Of a stretch of 64,000 nt of DNA, positions 7,345-61,024 are shown piece after piece. Position numbers and translations under genes: made by a program. The DNA is from Thermoleophilia bacterium UBA2241. Lineage in GTDB: Bacteria; Actinomycetota; Thermoleophilia; UBA2241. The notes beneath the pieces are model-generated. The model was not told where the DNA came from. It saw only the letters and a program-made list of their open reading frames with translations, and ran no database searches. Numbering within the stretch: the first letter of the stretch is position 1; every line of letters starts with the position of its first letter. Where the stretch lies: positions 38,663 to 102,662 of the forward strand of contig DDYF01000060.1 in NCBI GenBank assembly GCA_002347645.1. The letters are read 5' to 3'.

Positions 7345-7374
7345 GCGACGCGGCGACGCGAGGTTCGACGCGAA

Positions 7375-7406
7375 GGGGGGCGGGGGCCGAACGGCCCCCG
7401 CCCCCC
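7375..7406 (+). terminator. GC-rich stem-loop terminator after rplQ
   Basis: GGGGGGCGGGGGCC-GAAC-GGCCCCCGCCCCCC perfect 14-bp stem, followed by TTCG. Confidence 0.6.
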
Positions 7407-7486
7407 TTCGCCGTCTCCGCCTGTGGGAGTCTTCGGCCGGCGCCCGTCGCGGCCCCGCGGGACGCCTGCGGTAAGCTCTCCGGGAC

Positions 7487-15621: not shown

Positions 15622-16476
15622 ATGCTGTACGTCTGCGCGACACCCATCGGCAACCTGGGGGACGTCACGCCGCGCGTGGCGGAGGCGCTCGCCAAGGTCG
15701 GGCTGATCGCCGCCGAAGACACGAGGCACACGCGCAAGCTGCTGTCCCACCTGGGGGTCCACACGCCCTTGACCAGCCTCTTCAAGCACAACGAGGCGCA
15801 GAAGACGGAGGAGGTCCTGGCCCGCCTGCGTGAAGGCCACGACGTCGCCCTTGTCACCGACGCGGGGATGCCGGGTGTGCAGGACCCCGGCATGCGTCTG
15901 GTCACGCGGGCCATCGCGGAGGGCATCGCAGTGACGGTGCTGCCGGGTCCGTCGGCGGTGCTCGCCGCGCTCGTCGCGGCCGGCCTGGAGGGCGACGGGT
16001 TCCGGTTCGTGGGCTACTTGCCACGGCGCAGGGCGGAACTCGAAGCGGCGCTCTCCGGATGGCGACGCTGCGGCGGGTTGATCGTGGCGTTCGAGACCGG
16101 GCAGCGGCTCCCGGGCGCCCTGGCCGTGCTCGCGGCCCACGCCCCGGCGTTGCGCGCCGCGGTCTGCCGCGAGCTCACCAAGCTGCACGAGGAGGTCGTG
16201 CGTGGCACGCTGCACGAGCTGAGTGCGCGGTACCCGGTGAGCAGCCCAGATGCGACCCCCCTCGCCGGCGCCGTCCGCGGCGAGATGACGCTCGTCATCG
16301 ACCTCGGGCCGGCCCAGGAGGCGACGGCGCGTGCCGCCGAGCTGGCTACCGCCGCCGCCGCGACGCTGCTGGCCCGCGGGCTGAGCAAGCGCGACACCGC
16401 GGCGGCGTTACAGGTCTGCCTCGGCGTGCGGCACCGTGAGGCGGACCGCATCGCACGCGAGGCCGCGGGGCCCTGA
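15622..16476 (+). CDS. rsmI: 16S rRNA (cytidine1402-2'-O)-methyltransferase
   Basis: Tetrapyrrole-methylase fold, [16 protein letters not shown]...[12 protein letters not shown]. Confidence 0.85.
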
Positions 16477-16522
16477 ACGGCGCGTCCAGCCGCGGCGGGG
16501 CGCCGCCGCGACGCGCGCAGCC

Positions 16523-16551
16523 TTGGGTGCCCGCCGGCGTCGCTGCTACAA
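16523..16551 (+). promoter_or_regulatory. candidate promoter TTGGGT-18nt-TACAAT
   Basis: -35 TTGGGT 16523-16528, -10 TACAAT 16547-16552 region; followed by 15-mer shared with the mfd upstream region. Confidence 0.35.
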
Positions 16552-16619
16552 TCGCCGCACCGGATGCCGGCGGCGGACCGCCCATCGCCGGTCGGCGCTC
16601 GTCGAGGTCGGAGGTGGAC

Positions 16620-17519
16620 ATGGACCTGCTCGCCGCAGTCAAGGAACGGCTACTGCTGCTCGACGGAGCCATGGGTACGGAGCTCATGAGCCGCGGCTTC
16701 GCGCCCGGCCGGCCTCCCGAGGAGTGGAACGTGACGCGTCCCGGCGACGTCGCCGCCATCCACGCCGCGTACTACGCCGCGGGGTCGGACATCGTGCAGA
16801 CGAACACCTTCGGCGGCTCGCGCCACAAGCTGGCGGCCTACGACGCCGGCGACCGGGTCGCCGAGCTCAACGAGGCCGCCGCCCGTCTCGCGGTCGCGGT
16901 CCGCGACCGCGAGTGGCCCGGCCGCCTCGTCGCCGGCGACATCGGACCGACGGGCGTCTTCGTGTCGCCCATGGGCGACGCCGACCCCGACGATCTGCGC
17001 GACGGGTTCGCCGAACAGGCCGCCGCGCTCGCCGCCGCCGCCGTCGACCTGCTGCACATCGAGACGATGTTCGACCTGGCCGAGGCGCAGCTCGCCGTCG
17101 AGGGCGCGCGGCGGGCGGCTCCGGAGCTACCGGTGGTGGTCTCGCTTGCCTACAAGCCCACGCCGCGTGGGTTCCGGACCATGATGGGAGTCGACCCGCA
17201 GGCGGCCGCCGACGCGCTGCTCGCCGCGGGGGCGACCCTTGTGGGCTGCAACTGCGAGATCACCGCCGATCAGATGGGCGAGCTGGTCGAGGAGCTGCGC
17301 GAGGCCTCGGGCAGGCCCGTGGTCGCGCAGCCCAACGCGGGGGCGCCGCGGCTGGAAGACGGCGTCACGGTCTACGACGAGACGGCCGAGCACTTCGCCG
17401 GCGTGGTGGCCGGGTTCCCCGGCCACGGGGCCGGCATCGTCGGCGGCTGTTGCGGCACGACGCCGGCCTTCATCGCCGCCCTGGCGGCGAAGCTCGGGCG
17501 CGCCTCGGACGTGGCCTGA
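16620..17519 (+). CDS. homocysteine S-methyltransferase domain protein (stand-alone Hcy-binding Zn enzyme, MmuM/BHMT/MetH-N-like)
   Basis: [32 protein letters not shown] zinc-ligand motifs. Confidence 0.8.
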
Positions 17520-17539
17520 CCGGCGCGCCCGTGGACGAC

Positions 17540-18340
17540 ATGGTCGTCCAGGCCTTCCTGCTCACGCTGTTCGCAGGCTTGGCCACCGCCGTCGGCAGCG
17601 TGCTCGCCCTGTTCGCGCGCCGTACGAACACGCACGTCCTGTCCATAGCTCTCGGCTTCTCCGCGGGGGTCATGATCTACGTCTCGCTGGTCGAGATCCT
17701 GGCCAAGGGGCAAGCGGCCCTGGGTGAGGAACTCGGCGCCGAGACCGGGGGGTGGGTGGCACTCCTCGCCTTCCTCGGTGGCATCGTGCTCATCGCCACC
17801 ATCGACCGCCTGGTGCCGTCGTACGAGAACCCGCACGAGGCGCACCGGGTGGAGGAGATGAGCGAACGCGTGCCGGTCGCGCCGGAGCAACGCCTCTTGC
17901 GCATGGGCGTGCTGTCGGCGCTGGCCATCGCCATCCACAACTTTCCCGAGGGCCTGGCCACCTTCGTGGCGGCCCTCGACGACACCGCTCTTGGCGTCTC
18001 GATCGCCGTCGCCGTCGCCGTCCACAACGTCCCCGAGGGCGTCGCCGTATCGGTGCCCATCTACTACGCGACCGGCAGCCGTCGCCGGGCGTTCGTCTAC
18101 TCTGCGCTGAGCGGGCTCGCCGAGCCGGCGGGTGCGCTGATCGGCTACGTCTTCCTGCGCGCCTTCATGGGACCGGTCACCATGGGGCTCACCTTCGCCG
18201 TCGTCGCCGGCATCATGGTCTACGTGTCGCTCGACGAGTTGCTGCCGACGGCGCGCGAGTACGGCGAGCACCACCTGGCGATGGGCGGCCTGTTCGCCGG
18301 CATGGCGGTGATGGGCGCCAGCCTGCTGTTCTTTCTCTGA
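17540..18340 (+). CDS. zupT: ZIP-family zinc transporter
   Basis: 8 [10 protein letters not shown] and HNVPEGVA metal-binding motifs. Confidence 0.85.
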
Positions 18341-18359
18341 CGCCGGCCGTCAGTGCGGC

Positions 18360-18387
18360 GCCGCGTGGCGCCCTTCGGCCACGCGGT
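18360..18387. terminator. bidirectional stem-loop between convergent zupT and ureohydrolase genes
   Basis: GCCGCGTGGC-gcccttcg-GCCACGCGGT. Confidence 0.45.
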
Positions 18388-18411
18388 GGGCCGCGGCCGG
18401 CTCGGCCTAGC

Positions 18412-19374: not shown

Positions 19375-19389
19375 GATGTCCTCCTCGCA

Positions 19390-19433
19390 GAGAATGACGC
19401 GGGCGGGGCTGCAGCCCCGCCCGCGTCATTCTC
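19390..19433. repeat. perfect 44-bp palindrome (22-bp arms) in the aminotransferase-ureohydrolase intergenic gap
   Basis: GAGAATGACGCGGGCGGGGCTGC|AGCCCCGCCCGCGTCATTCTC, reverse complement identical. Confidence 0.9.
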
Positions 19434-19463
19434 TCACGCGACCCCTGCGGGCCGCACGCCGGG

Positions 19464-20855
19464 TCAGCCCTCCTTGACGCCCTTGCCGAACGTCTTGGAG
19501 ACCTCGGCGACCGACTCCTCGACGATGTCGCAGCCTAGGGTGAAGAGCTCCGGCGGCATGTTGAGGGCCGGCGTCGGCCGGAACCAGTTGAACGCCGGCT
19601 CGTAGATCGGGATGACGCCGCGGCGCTCCATCGCGTAGACGACCTCGCGCGTGATGTCGTGCGCCGGCGTCTTGGAGTCCTTGTCCTCGACGAACTCGAC
19701 GCACTGGTAGCAGCCCTTCACGCGCACGTCGCCCACGACTTCGTACTTCTCCTTCATCGCGCCGAACTTCTGGAGGGCGATGCGCTCGATCTCCTTGACG
19801 TTGTCCAGCACCTTGTCGCGCTTGATGATCTCGATCATCTTGATGCCGACGGCGCACCCGACGGGCGAGCCGGCGAAGGTGCCGCCGGTGTACAGGTTGC
19901 CGGCGGGCTCGCTCATGTGGTCCGAGCCCAGGGTGTAGCAGATGGGGATCAGGCCTCCCGACGTGCCCTTGCCGAGCGAGAGCAGCTCACACTCGACGCC
20001 CGGGTACGCGTCGAGCAGGAACCACTCGCCGCAGCGCCCCATCCCCTCCTGGACCTCGTCGTTGTAGAAGATCCAGCCATGCTTCTTGCACAGGTCGGAG
20101 AGCCGCTTCGGCCACTCGGGCGGCGGGATCTGGATGCCGTTCTCACCCTGGATGAGCTCGACGGCGACGCCGGCGATGCTGTCGGGCGTCGCCTTGTAGC
20201 GCAGGATCATCTCCTCGATGTACTCGAGGCAGGCGACGTCGCAGGATGGGTAGTCGAGGTGGTACGGGCAGCGGTAGCAGGTGGGGAAGGGGACGTTGAT
20301 CCAGCCGCTCATGAACGGCTCGATGGCGTGGTTGTAGTGGGCGTTGTGCGGGCCCATGGCGCCGGTGCCGTAGTTGCCGCCGTGGAAGCTGCCCAGGAAG
20401 GTGATGACGAAGGGGCGGCCGGGTCCGGCGGCCTCGCGCATGATGCGCACGGCGTTCTCGACGACCTCGCTGCCGGTCGTGTCGTAGACGATCCGGCTGA
20501 GCGGCTCGGGGGCGATCTCCATGAGCTTCTCGGCGAGCTCGTACTGGTGCCAGACGGTCAGCGACGAGAGACATTCCGTGCCGTACTCCTTGAGGGCCGT
20601 GTGGGCGGCCTCGACGAGCTCGGGGTTGCCGCCGCCGAGCGGCGACGACGCCCAGCCGGCCAGCCAGTCGATGTAGCGGTTGCCGTCGACGTCTTCGAGG
20701 AACCAGCCGTCCCGGTAGCGCGAGACGAAGTGGCTCGGCGGCCACGCGCCGATGAGCGACACGCCGAGCATGATCTCCCCGGCGCGCTTGAACAGACGGG
20801 TGCTCTCCGGGCCCGGGGGTGGTGTCTTCACGCGGGGGCCGTCGAACTGTGCCAT
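19464..20855 (-). CDS. class-III (omega) aminotransferase, PLP-dependent
   Basis: Fold-type I class III layout, lysine motif LSLGKGTSGG, 463 aa. Confidence 0.8.
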   Translation of the reverse strand: MAQFDGPRVKTPPPGPESTRLFKRAGEIMLGVSLIGAWPPSHFVSRYRDGWFLEDVDGNRYIDWLAGWASSPLGGGNPELVEAAHTALKEYGTECLSSLTVWHQYELAEKLMEIAPEPLSRIVYDTTGSEVVENAVRIMREAAGPGRPFVITFLGSFHGGNYGTGAMGPHNAHYNHAIEPFMSGWINVPFPTCYRCPYHLDYPSCDVACLEYIEEMILRYKATPDSIAGVAVELIQGENGIQIPPPEWPKRLSDLCKKHGWIFYNDEVQEGMGRCGEWFLLDAYPGVECELLSLGKGTSGGLIPICYTLGSDHMSEPAGNLYTGGTFAGSPVGCAVGIKMIEIIKRDKVLDNVKEIERIALQKFGAMKEKYEVVGDVRVKGCYQCVEFVEDKDSKTPAHDITREVVYAMERRGVIPIYEPAFNWFRPTPALNMPPELFTLGCDIVEESVAEVSKTFGKGVKEG

Positions 20856-20858
20856 GGG

Positions 20859-21338
20859 TCAGCCTCCTGGTTCGCGGACGTCGGTCGCGGGCGACCACTG
20901 GTAGTTGTCTTTGAGGACCTTGAGCATGAGCAGCAGCTCGGCCTCCATGATGCCGGGGATCGGCCGGATGCGGTTCACGAGCAGGTCGTACAGCGCCTCA
21001 CGGTCGTGGCAGACGACGCCGACCGTGAGGTCGAAGCGCCCGGCGCAGATGCCGACGAAGTCGACCTCCGGCAGCGCGGCGATCTCTTGCGCCGCCTGCC
21101 GCAGCCGGTCGCCGGCGACGCGGATGTCGATCTGCGCCGACAGCAGCCCCAGGTCGAGCGGGCTCGAGGCGGCGACGATCTGGATGACCTTGCGCTTGAT
21201 GAGGCGCGAGACCCGCTGGCGGACGCTCGCCTCGGAGATGCCGAGGTCCTTGGCGATCCTCGTGTACGGACGGCGCCCGTCCTGCTGCAGGTGCGTGATG
21301 ATCTTCGCGTCGACGCTGTCGAGGCCGATGCCGCGCAT
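20859..21338 (-). CDS. Lrp/AsnC-family transcriptional regulator
   Basis: HTH DAKIITHLQQDGRRPYTRIAKDLGISEASV plus RAM domain. Confidence 0.85.
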   Translation of the reverse strand: MRGIGLDSVDAKIITHLQQDGRRPYTRIAKDLGISEASVRQRVSRLIKRKVIQIVAASSPLDLGLLSAQIDIRVAGDRLRQAAQEIAALPEVDFVGICAGRFDLTVGVVCHDREALYDLLVNRIRPIPGIMEAELLLMLKVLKDNYQWSPATDVREPGG

Positions 21339-21494
21339 TCTGCTCCTTTCCCCGCCCCATTCTACGAATCGGCGCAGCGAAAGGCCAGCGTTTCTGCGAT
21401 TTCGGCAGGCGCAGAGTAGCGGGAAGCCGTCCGGCGATAGGATGCGCAGCGAGGCGCGGCGCCGGCCGTGCCGCCCGGCGACAAGGAGACCAGC

Positions 21495-22089: not shown

Positions 22090-23268
22090 TCAGGTCGGGG
22101 GTCCTCCGTGCAGACGGGCCGCCAGCCCCGCCAGAGCGAGGTCGCGGGCGTCCTCGGCGCTCGCCTCGGCCGCCCACCAGTGCGCGTCGAGCTCGGCGCC
22201 CTGCACGACTCGCCGATACAGCTCGGGGGTGGCTACGTAGTGGGCGCTGCGTCCTGCGCCCCGGCCGCACAGGAGGCCCGCGGCGACCATCTTGCCCAGG
22301 TCGTGCGACGCGGTGACACCCGACACGCCGGCCGTCCCGCGGTAGAAGCGGTTCGTGACGTCGCGCGCGAAGAAGGCGTCGTACAGCGCGTGGGTCGCGC
22401 GCTCCGCCAGCCCCAGATCGTGGACGGCGACGTCCTCGAGCACCGTCCAGAGGGCGCGCTCCGTGGCGTTGCGCAAGGAGAGCGCCTCGACCTGCGTCGC
22501 CTGCGCGACGACGTGGGCCTCGACGAACGGCGTGACGTCCGCGTCGGGGGCCCACGTGGAGCCAAGGCAGTCGAAGGCGCGGTAGTACTCGTCGGGGTGC
22601 CGGCCCCACCATTCCTCAAGGCTCGTGAACTGCGGCAGACGGTAGCCACCACGGTACATCGCCAGGGACGCCGCGATGCGCGCTGTGCGGCCGTTGCCGT
22701 CGACGAACGGGTGGATGCCGGCAAGTGAGACATGAACGATGGCCGCCTTCAGCGCTGCGGGCTCGGCGGCCTCGTCCATCCACGTGCAGACCTCCGCGAT
22801 CGCCCGCGGGACGACATCGGCCGTGGGTGGCAGGTAGACCCTGTCGCCGGACGCGCTGTTCGTCAGCCAGTTCTGCCCGGTGCGGAAGCGCCCGGCACCC
22901 CGGGAGTAGGCGCCCGCCAGCACCCGGTGATGGATGGCCGAGATCAGCTCCGCATGCCAGCCGAACGACTCGGCGTCGGCACGGGCAAGGACGAGGTGCA
23001 TCGCGTCTCGGTAGCCGCGCACGAGGTCGGCGTCGGCGTCGGCGACGCCGGCCGGCCGGTCGCCCGCGAGGATGCGGCGTGCCTCGTCGACGGTGACCGG
23101 CACGCCTTCGAGCATCGTGGACGCCGCCGTCGCCTCGGCCTCGAGGTCGCGACGGGTCCGACCCTTCCAGGTGCGGGGAAGGGGCCCCTGCGCGTCGAGG
23201 CGCGCGCGTAGCTCCTCGATGCGAGCGAGGGCATCGCTAGTGGCGGCGGTGAGCGCGAACCCGAACAC
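22090..23268 (-). CDS. Fic-family protein (AMPylator-type), class II with N-terminal inhibitory motif
   Basis: Active-site HPFVDGNGRTARI; N-terminal STMLEG fits [ST]xxxE[GN] inhibitory helix; C-terminal wHTH-like region. Confidence 0.8.
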   Translation of the reverse strand: MFGFALTAATSDALARIEELRARLDAQGPLPRTWKGRTRRDLEAEATAASTMLEGVPVTVDEARRILAGDRPAGVADADADLVRGYRDAMHLVLARADAESFGWHAELISAIHHRVLAGAYSRGAGRFRTGQNWLTNSASGDRVYLPPTADVVPRAIAEVCTWMDEAAEPAALKAAIVHVSLAGIHPFVDGNGRTARIAASLAMYRGGYRLPQFTSLEEWWGRHPDEYYRAFDCLGSTWAPDADVTPFVEAHVVAQATQVEALSLRNATERALWTVLEDVAVHDLGLAERATHALYDAFFARDVTNRFYRGTAGVSGVTASHDLGKMVAAGLLCGRGAGRSAHYVATPELYRRVVQGAELDAHWWAAEASAEDARDLALAGLAARLHGGPPT

Positions 23269-26708: not shown

Positions 26709-27758
26709 ATGACGGTGGAGATGAACGGCACGCTCGACGCGGTCGAGGTCGCAGCGCCCGCCAAGGTCAACCTTGCGCTGCTCGTCGGACCGCTGCGACC
26801 CGACGGCTTCCACGAGCTCGCCTCCCTGATGGTGCCGGTGACGCTCGGCGATCTGGTCGTCGTGCGGCGCACACCCGGTGAGGACCTCGTCGTCGACTGT
26901 GCGGTGTGCCCCGGCGAGCGGAACCTTGCGGCGCGTATGGTGCGCGAGCTCGAGGCGCGCCTCGAGCGCCGCTTCGAGGTCGCCGTCGACGTGCACAAGC
27001 AGATCCCCGTGGGCGCCGGCCTCGCCGGTGGAAGCTCGGATGCCGCGGCGACGCTCGTCGCGCTCGAGCGTCTCTTCGAGCTCGACCTCTCGCCGCGGTT
27101 GCGCTACGAGGTCGCAGCGGCGGTCGGCTCCGACGTCCCCTTCTTCCTCTGGCCCGGGGCGCAGTTGGCCATGGGACGCGGGCAGCTGCTCAAGGATGTC
27201 GGCCTGGTGGCCCCGCTCAGCTTGGTGATCGCCGTCCCCGAGGTGTCGCTCTCCACGGCCGCCGTCTACGGCTGGAGGGACGAGGACGTCCGGGTGACCT
27301 TGCCCGACTTCGTTCCTCGGGCGCGGATGCTGTCGAGCCGCGTCGCCGCCGCGCGCACCCTGCATGACATCGCCGCGCTGGTCGAGAACGACCTCGAGGC
27401 GAGCGTCGTCGCGCGCCGCCCCGAGGTGGGCGCCCTGCGCGACCGCCTGCTCGCCGAGGGGGCGGCTGCGGCGGCCATGACCGGCAGCGGGTCCGCCGTC
27501 TTCGGCCTCTTCACCGACGTCGAGGCCGCGAGCCGCGCGCGATCGCGGCTGCTCGCGGCCTCACGCGACGCCTCGCCGGACGCGGGCGGCGTCTTGCCGC
27601 CCGGGCGCGTCTTCTGCGTCACCGACCTGCAGGCCGCCCCGGAGGACGGCGCGCACCCGTGGGCCGGCGTGCGGCCCGCGGCGCCCTCGGGCGCTCCCCG
27701 GCGCAAACCGCGACCGGCTCGCCGGCGGCCCTCGGGGCGCCCTCCCGGCGCAAGTTGA
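26709..27758 (+). CDS. ispE: 4-diphosphocytidyl-2-C-methyl-D-erythritol kinase with Pro/Arg-rich C-terminal tail
   Basis: PAKVNLAL, GHMP motif PVGAGLAGGSSDAAA; rsmA-ispE synteny. Confidence 0.88.
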   Translation: MTVEMNGTLDAVEVAAPAKVNLALLVGPLRPDGFHELASLMVPVTLGDLVVVRRTPGEDLVVDCAVCPGERNLAARMVRELEARLERRFEVAVDVHKQIPVGAGLAGGSSDAAATLVALERLFELDLSPRLRYEVAAAVGSDVPFFLWPGAQLAMGRGQLLKDVGLVAPLSLVIAVPEVSLSTAAVYGWRDEDVRVTLPDFVPRARMLSSRVAAARTLHDIAALVENDLEASVVARRPEVGALRDRLLAEGAAAAAMTGSGSAVFGLFTDVEAASRARSRLLAASRDASPDAGGVLPPGRVFCVTDLQAAPEDGAHPWAGVRPAAPSGAPRRKPRPARRRPSGRPPGAS

Positions 27759-54593: not shown

Positions 54594-54625
54594 AGGGGGG
54601 GCGGGCCGCAAGGCCCGCCCCCCTC
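54594..54625. terminator. bidirectional stem-loop between convergent genes
   Basis: GAGGGGGGCGGGCC-gcaa-GGCCCGCCCCCCTC followed by CTCTCTCT. Confidence 0.6.
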
Positions 54626-60991: not shown

Positions 60992-61024
60992 GAGGGGGAC
61001 GGTCCCGATGGGACCGTCCCCCTC
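60992..61024. terminator. perfect 15-bp stem / 3-nt loop hairpin immediately downstream of copA stop
   Basis: GAGGGGGACGGTCCC-GAT-GGGACCGTCCCCCTC. Confidence 0.6.

Follow-up and report, generated by a model that had tools for sequence, protein, structure and literature searches.

Three co-directional genes lie next to each other on the minus strand of the window (the whole 64-kb stretch of DNA that was analysed) and form an operon that encodes an Lrp/AsnC-family regulator, a class-III aminotransferase and an agmatinase-family ureohydrolase (Table 1). An earlier note on this DNA had described this gene context, including a gap of 89 nt between the aminotransferase and ureohydrolase genes, and the description was verified by gene calls and domain matches. 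The stop codon of the regulator gene is separated by 3 nt from the aminotransferase ATG, and the ureohydrolase passes the cutoff of the NCBIfam agmatinase equivalog TIGR01230 (182.7 bits, cutoff 174.3). A 461-aa gene at 1191-2576 was considered as a paralogue of the aminotransferase and ruled out, as the two show no similarity.

The 89-nt gap is largely taken up by two hairpin-forming sequences, the larger of which is a perfect palindrome. Direct sequence comparison confirmed that GAGAATGACGCGGGCGGGGCTGCAGCCCCGCCCGCGTCATTCTC, at 19390-19433, is identical to its own reverse complement, as had been proposed for a palindrome of 44 bp; the symmetry grows by one further pair on each side (A19389/T19434), which brings the full length to 46 bp with arms of 23 nt and a spacer of 0. 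The predicted fold energy of this sequence is -46.5 kcal/mol as RNA and -30.1 kcal/mol as DNA. The stem consists of a GC-rich core and AU-richer outer 7-9 pairs (AGAGAAUGA / UCAUUCUCU); its 14-bp core is nearly all GC (GACGCGGGCGGGGC), and in the outer part AGAGAAU is paired with AUUCUCU. Dinucleotide shuffles of the window gave 0 arm matches even at 3 or fewer mismatches, and a back-of-envelope estimate at about 71% GC composition puts the chance expectation at ~1e-7 perfect 23-nt arms per 64 kb. The fold of the whole junction has a z-score of -5.0 against shuffles.

Read along the mRNA, the junction consists of UGA, 5 nt, the small hairpin (19458-19435), the large hairpin (19434-19389), GC, GAGGAGG, ACAUC and AUG. 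The large hairpin thus begins 29 nt past the aminotransferase stop, and its 3' end lies 2-3 nt from GAGGAGG and about 14-15 nt from the agmatinase ATG. The distance of 16 nt that had been given between palindrome and ribosome-binding site needs correction, as ~15 nt is the distance to the ATG. An attenuator switch based on alternative pairing of the 5' arm with the small hairpin ahead of it was considered and rejected, no alternative pairing being found to rival the main stem.

Table 1. Coordinates of the features at the operon junction and of other perfect hairpins in the window.
Feature	Position	Strand	Location	Remarks
Lrp/AsnC-family regulator gene	20859..21338	-	first gene of the operon	gene call
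Class-III aminotransferase gene, 463 aa	19464..20855	-	upstream cistron	PF00202; no NCBIfam equivalog cutoff reached
Aminotransferase stop codon TGA	19464..19466	-		protein of 463 aa here, 461 aa in close homologues
Window-only segment, 98 nt	19375..19472	-		relatives have the 3-nt stop codon only; net +95 nt
Smaller imperfect hairpin, ~10 pairs including G-U, loop GCAG	19435..19458	-	between stop codon and palindrome	-16.0 kcal/mol
Perfect 46-bp palindrome	19389..19434	-		in the mRNA, 21-bp stem and UGCA loop
Agmatinase Shine-Dalgarno sequence GAGGAGG	19380..19386	-	2 nt past the hairpin, 5 nt ahead of the ATG	
Agmatinase-family (arginase-fold) ureohydrolase gene, 320 aa	18412..19374	-	downstream cistron	PF00491; TIGR01230
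Perfect hairpin with 20-bp stem (GCGAAGGGGGGCGGGGGCCG / loop AA..)	7370-7411		25 nt past the rplQ (L17) stop, end of ribosomal-protein cluster	-49.3 kcal/mol; no U-tract
Perfect 15-bp GC hairpin	60992-61024		26 nt past a heavy-metal P-type ATPase gene	
Perfect 12-bp GC hairpin	54596-54623		between convergent genes, 42 and 29 nt past their two stops	

Three observations were made on the surroundings of the operon. The flavin reductase and metG neighbours are split by a Fic-domain gene (22090-23268, minus strand) in the window only; the same two genes are adjacent in the related loci L001, L006, L162 and L002, the last of which has a Fic gene at another place in the locus, and the gene of the window looks like a variable or inserted one. 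On the plus strand, an ORF at 16436-18340 would encode 634 aa, of which the ZupT/ZIP match covers residues 369-633 only, and a GC3-based gene call picks a separate gene at 16527-17519 within this region; ZupT itself probably starts at an internal position of the 634-aa ORF. Between the convergent stops of the agmatinase and ZupT genes (18331-18401, minus strand) imperfect GC hairpins are predicted; a search of this segment gave a sub-threshold match to the Rfam Actino-ugpB RNA (26.9 bits, gathering threshold 42.5, E = 0.054) that is probably due to chance.

Comparison with orthologous junctions and age of the spacer

The junction was compared with six orthologous ones (L001, L006, L007, L160, L162 and L163), whose proteins are 77-92% identical to those of the window and which were counted as six independent lineages. 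The closest homologues of the agmatinase and the aminotransferase were found on metagenomic contigs, some of them from Thermoleophilia or Actinomycetota MAGs. In 6/6 of these junctions the aminotransferase stop directly abuts the agmatinase start with no spacer between them, the sequence reading ...AAG TAG/ATG GGC AAC... (TAA/GTG in L163), and the two genes likewise follow each other without a spacer in L161, a more distant and frameshifted locus with 61% identity. From its sequence, this stop/start abutment is read as translational coupling. Since all six relatives have abutted genes where the window has 98 nt, the spacer together with its palindrome is, on this comparison of sequences, a derived, lineage-specific insertion and not a conserved feature of the operon; the earlier note had overlooked that the whole spacer, as judged from the aligned junctions, is an insertion that breaks an ancestral abutment.

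The inserted segment contributes two codons (Glu-Gly) and the new TGA to the aminotransferase gene, both hairpins, and the new GAGGAGG ribosome-binding site. In the window the Shine-Dalgarno sequence is predicted to be unpaired with a probability of 0.74 and the start codon with one of 0.79, against 0.27-0.74 (0.48 or lower in 4/5) and 0.13-0.38, respectively, in the abutted relatives.

Other arrangements were found among the compared loci. In L002-L005 there is no aminotransferase gene, and the Lrp gene is followed by 28 nt and then by an agmatinase gene with its own GAAGGAGGAC ribosome-binding site (for example L002 3499-4966). The downstream neighbours also differ among the loci. A 434-aa predicted protein (P0144) contains both PF00202 and PF00491 and looks like an aminotransferase C-terminus fused to an agmatinase, as loss of the abutted TAG/ATG stop would give.

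One further contig, L008 (GCA_038318055.1), begins 50 nt upstream of the agmatinase with GC-rich non-coding sequence (TGCGGCCCCGCCCGCC..., then AGGAGGACATG). It was examined as a sister sharing the insert and rejected: its agmatinase is 89% identical to that of the spacer-less L001 and 86% to that of the window, and L163, its mate in the 90%-identity cluster, has the TAA/GTG abutment. Because L008 is closer to L001 and L163 is abutted, the likeness of L008 to the insert (GCCCCGCCCGC, AGGAGGACAT) is attributed to GC-rich sequence and the Shine-Dalgarno consensus. Positions 1-50 of L008 are possibly a different spacer variant, perhaps with another hairpin where the assembly broke.

An assembly or amplification artefact of a metagenome-assembled contig is the least probable of the explanations weighed here and is hardly credible. 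The source does appear to be metagenome-assembled, the palindrome was seen on a single contig, and L008 breaks off in GC-rich sequence a short way upstream of the agmatinase gene. However, a sequencing read is longer than the 46 bp of the palindrome, the genes on either side are intact and in collinear order, and unique, non-palindromic insert sequence on both sides supplies a working stop and ribosome-binding site; foldback artefacts invert long flanks, and no such inversion is present at the junction.

The perfection of the arms bears on the age of the palindrome. Divergence between the window and its nearest relatives at four-fold-degenerate sites of the aminotransferase gene is ~0.27-0.29, from which ~8 neutral changes are predicted in 46 nt on the branch of the window since the split, against 0 observed, an age estimate that rests on one sampled sequence. 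As no decay is seen despite ~8 expected changes, the palindrome should either have arisen well after the split or have been kept free of changes by selection or template-switch correction. A single template switch during replication is enough to make a perfect stem or to restore one (PMC8794818, PMC5941160), and the perfect arms may come from such an event. The palindrome resembles inverted repeats of template-switch origin in having perfect arms where several neutral changes would be expected and in being a stem that is new in one lineage. It differs from them in that the donor and the switch points are not reconstructable here, no close sister carrying the precursor.

A young and selectively neutral insertion, arisen for example by replication slippage or template switching and devoid of any regulatory role, is the main rival to a function at the RNA level and is considered somewhat unlikely; it would persist simply because the new stop and ribosome-binding site keep both genes functional. 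It would account for an element that occurs in one sampled lineage only and is absent from the six orthologous junctions, and perfect arms are the expected trace of a very recent event; a perfect stem can be produced at once by template switching (PMC8794818). The locus is moreover in flux, with the aminotransferase lost in L002-L005, the Fic gene inserted in the window and differing downstream neighbours. On the other hand, the insert also provides a stop codon in frame, the smaller hairpin and a ribosome-binding site that is close to consensus, unpaired and rightly spaced, all of which suggests selection; its position past the stop matches that of other terminator-like hairpins, and an mRNA stem of -46 kcal/mol is unlikely to be wholly without effect.

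A combination of the two views, in which a newborn intercistronic regulatory hairpin would have uncoupled the abutted junction through one template-switch or insertion event, its stem having since been kept perfect by selection or repeated correction, is regarded as rather improbable on the sequences compared. If true, it would provide a natural case of operon-internal terminators or stabilisers, and of differential cistron expression, arising de novo.

Further copies and DNA-level alternatives

Short palindromic insertions may also belong to mobile or repeat families. Within the 64-kb window no second copy was detected, either with 3 or fewer mismatches in 22 nt or by short-word BLAST of the 98-nt insert, which besides the insert itself returned one 16-nt GC-rich match (27664-27679, E = 0.02) that was taken as chance. 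An 18-mer taken from the arm was matched exactly at 69 places among 185,579 species-representative genomes and in 82 metagenome contigs, numbers that are roughly at chance level; none of these matches is a palindromic copy, since each is confined to one strand, where a palindrome would be matched on both, and they come from unrelated taxa and do not extend into the palindrome. The 32-nt core had 0 matches in viral contigs, plasmid and phage collections gave no match, and nothing comparable to the palindrome was seen in ~55 kb of related loci. Many identical copies, the finding that the earlier note had named as speaking against a specific element, were thus absent from what was covered, namely the 64-kb window of the source genome and the public collections. 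At the borders of the insert, which read AAG/GAGGGC and GACATC/ATG, there is no target-site duplication, and the element has neither terminal inverted repeats beyond the palindrome itself nor the GTAG head recognised by a RAYT transposase.

From these searches, membership in an abundant REP-like family appears unlikely. REP, ERIC and MIRU elements are typically intergenic between co-directional genes. Insertion into the operon junction of a mobile palindromic element of low copy number, similar to REP, MITE or PATE, would fit this habit, as well as the status of the spacer as an insertion relative to the orthologous loci, and the part of the source genome that was searched was the 64-kb window only, out of a contig of at least 225 kb. 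It is nevertheless improbable, given that neither the window nor the public collections of genomes, metagenomes, viruses, plasmids and phages yielded a further copy, that related loci are devoid of comparable palindromes, and that a clear target-site duplication, additional terminal inverted repeats and the GTAG head are all missing. The likeness to REP/BIME, ERIC, MIRU and MITE sequences lies in a short palindromic insert at a co-directional operon junction in one lineage only, and the unlikeness in the lack of copies and of these hallmarks. MIRUs, in addition, have a small ORF that bridges the stop and start codons, whereas the insert of the window has none: an ATG in the 5' arm was examined by eye as a candidate and rejected, being out of frame with the agmatinase and lacking a usable ribosome-binding site.

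The earlier note had also proposed a site for a dimeric regulator, with the adjacent Lrp/AsnC protein as candidate binder. A DNA operator for such a factor, or else an internal promoter, has in its favour the dyad symmetry, the regulator gene in the same operon and the weak resemblance of the outer arm TGAGAGAAT to an extended -10 element, in which GAGAAT keeps A2 and T6 of the -10 hexamer and TG stands one base upstream. This explanation is nonetheless very improbable. The palindrome is absent from L001, L006, L160 and L162, all of which keep the Lrp gene, and also from L007 and L163, whose contigs end short of the Lrp gene. It lies within the operon, 14 nt ahead of a start codon and away from any promoter-like site, and a promoter scan at the junction found nothing. 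Lrp-type sites are short and AT-rich, and operators of dimeric factors typically extend over far fewer base pairs than a continuous GC-rich palindrome of 46 bp. Conservation in the non-coding sequence of the operon is instead found upstream of the Lrp gene, in the motifs ATTCGTAGAATG and GGAATCGCAG. An Lrp site at the palindrome is not supported.

That the arm duplicates the promoter region of the operon itself (AGAATG..GGGCGGGG) was rejected as well, the similarity being non-significant with 1095/1936 control windows scoring at least as high. As to the region upstream of the Lrp/AsnC gene itself (21339-21470, minus strand), alignment revealed two motifs conserved in 7/7 compared loci: ATTCGTAGAATG, with a TAGAAT that is -10-like, lies ~25 nt ahead of the Lrp ATG, and GGAATCGCAG ~35 nt further upstream. 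Both are sequence-based candidates for the operon promoter and an autoregulatory operator.

Terminator-like hairpins and a proposed function in the mRNA

With a minimum length of 12 bp, 11 perfect stems were counted in the window, that of the palindrome being the longest. The palindrome had been described as far longer and more perfect than the other hairpins of the window; it is indeed the longest perfect palindrome, although not by far, and the stem past rplQ, probably an operon terminator, is predicted to be more stable. Other perfect GC hairpins of the window recur 25-42 nt past stop codons, a range that includes the 29 nt of the palindrome, which has the same form as they do, its 5' arm being rich in G, its 3' arm rich in C and its loop 4 nt long. 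This recurrence suggests that hairpins followed by poor U-tracts are a regular feature of gene ends in the genome of the window, and the palindrome looks like one more terminator-type hairpin, lying inside an operon.

A GC-rich RNA hairpin just past a stop codon, as an intrinsic terminator has, is present at the junction, with a stem of 21-23 bp located 29 nt past the TGA. The 9 nt past the full stem (GCGAGGAGG) contain no U; past the 14-bp GC core the sequence is AUUCUCU, with 4 U in 7. A scan for consensus terminators at the junction made no call. Rfam at a permissive threshold returned sub-threshold matches only (mir-598, 28 bits with a gathering threshold of 69; sX6, 14.8 with 40), and neither a guanidine riboswitch nor any other was found in the Rfam search of the junction. 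Guanidine riboswitches are associated with ureohydrolase-type genes.

The RNA polymerase of mycobacteria requires a U-tract and does not terminate in vitro at hairpins lacking one; it tolerates imperfect U-tracts better than the E. coli enzyme, and NusG helps (Czyz et al., PMC3993855). With AUUCUCU as a suboptimal U-tract, partial termination at the palindrome is therefore plausible. The palindrome resembles the intrinsic terminators of high-GC actinobacteria in its GC stem, its 4-nt loop, a position 25-30 nt past a stop and an AU-richer base (AGAGAAU/AUUCUCU), and it shares with bidirectional terminators, whose U-tract is paired to an A-tract, the AU-richer stem base that flanks a GC core. 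It differs from intrinsic terminators in a stem that is unusually long and perfect and in a U-tract that is poor and fully paired in the final fold; the next cistron, furthermore, begins 14 nt downstream, so that it would be a partial terminator at most.

In a second class of known elements, stem-loops between cistrons cause the segments of an operon mRNA to differ in stability; the REP hairpins of malE-malF in E. coli and the hairpins of the puf operon in Rhodobacter are examples. The co-directional operon and the stable stem-loop within its 89-nt gap have the structure of an intercistronic stabiliser or processing hairpin. As in malE-malF and puf, the palindrome separates two genes of a single operon and lies close behind the 3' end of the upstream one, and by analogy it would be expected to block 3'-to-5' decay and favour the upstream message. 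The REP family of which the malE-malF element is a member has many copies, whereas the palindrome had no other copy in anything searched.

The best explanation, held tentatively and with slightly less than even confidence, is a lineage-specific intercistronic RNA stem-loop that would serve as a leaky terminator, a stabiliser of mRNA 3' ends or both, with independent initiation replacing translational coupling. Of the functions put forward in the earlier note, an attenuator or a processing or stability element, those at the RNA level fit best with a hairpin placed 29 nt past the stop and an unpaired ribosome-binding site.

In the proposed model, the palindrome constitutes the core of a 98-nt spacer inserted at an ancestrally abutted aminotransferase-agmatinase junction, and on the operon mRNA it would form a very stable stem-loop past the aminotransferase stop. 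During transcription a 14-bp GC stem could form and be followed by the imperfect U-tract AUUCUCU, making up a leaky intrinsic terminator. By analogy with known stabilisers, a stem of -46 kcal/mol should impede 3'-to-5' exonucleases whether or not it terminates transcription, and the upstream Lrp-aminotransferase message would be stabilised behind this barrier. On readthrough transcripts the agmatinase would be translated from its own strong, unpaired GAGGAGG and not by coupling. The net result would be that the output of the two cistrons is unlinked, probably with less agmatinase than aminotransferase.

The structure of the palindrome, its position, its insertion status, the accessible ribosome-binding site and the absence of other copies in everything searched are observed; the terminating or stabilising activity and the effect on expression ratios are what we infer. 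Several points weigh against a functional RNA stem-loop. Full termination would silence the agmatinase, whose start lies 14 nt past the stem, and there is no canonical U-tract past the full stem. The element occurs in one genome only, and neither covariation nor conservation supports a function. A very recent neutral insertion, finally, would look equally perfect.

If the palindrome had no function, it would be an ordinary intergenic hairpin of one uncultured genome. If it is functional, the abutted operon of the relatives and the 98-nt hairpin spacer with an independent ribosome-binding site in the window would represent a natural before-and-after pair, which could be used to measure how far an inserted stem-loop rebalances the expression of two cistrons in a high-GC actinobacterium. 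It would also bear on an unsettled issue, namely whether a GC hairpin with a poor U-tract brings about termination in such organisms or does no more than stabilise the RNA.
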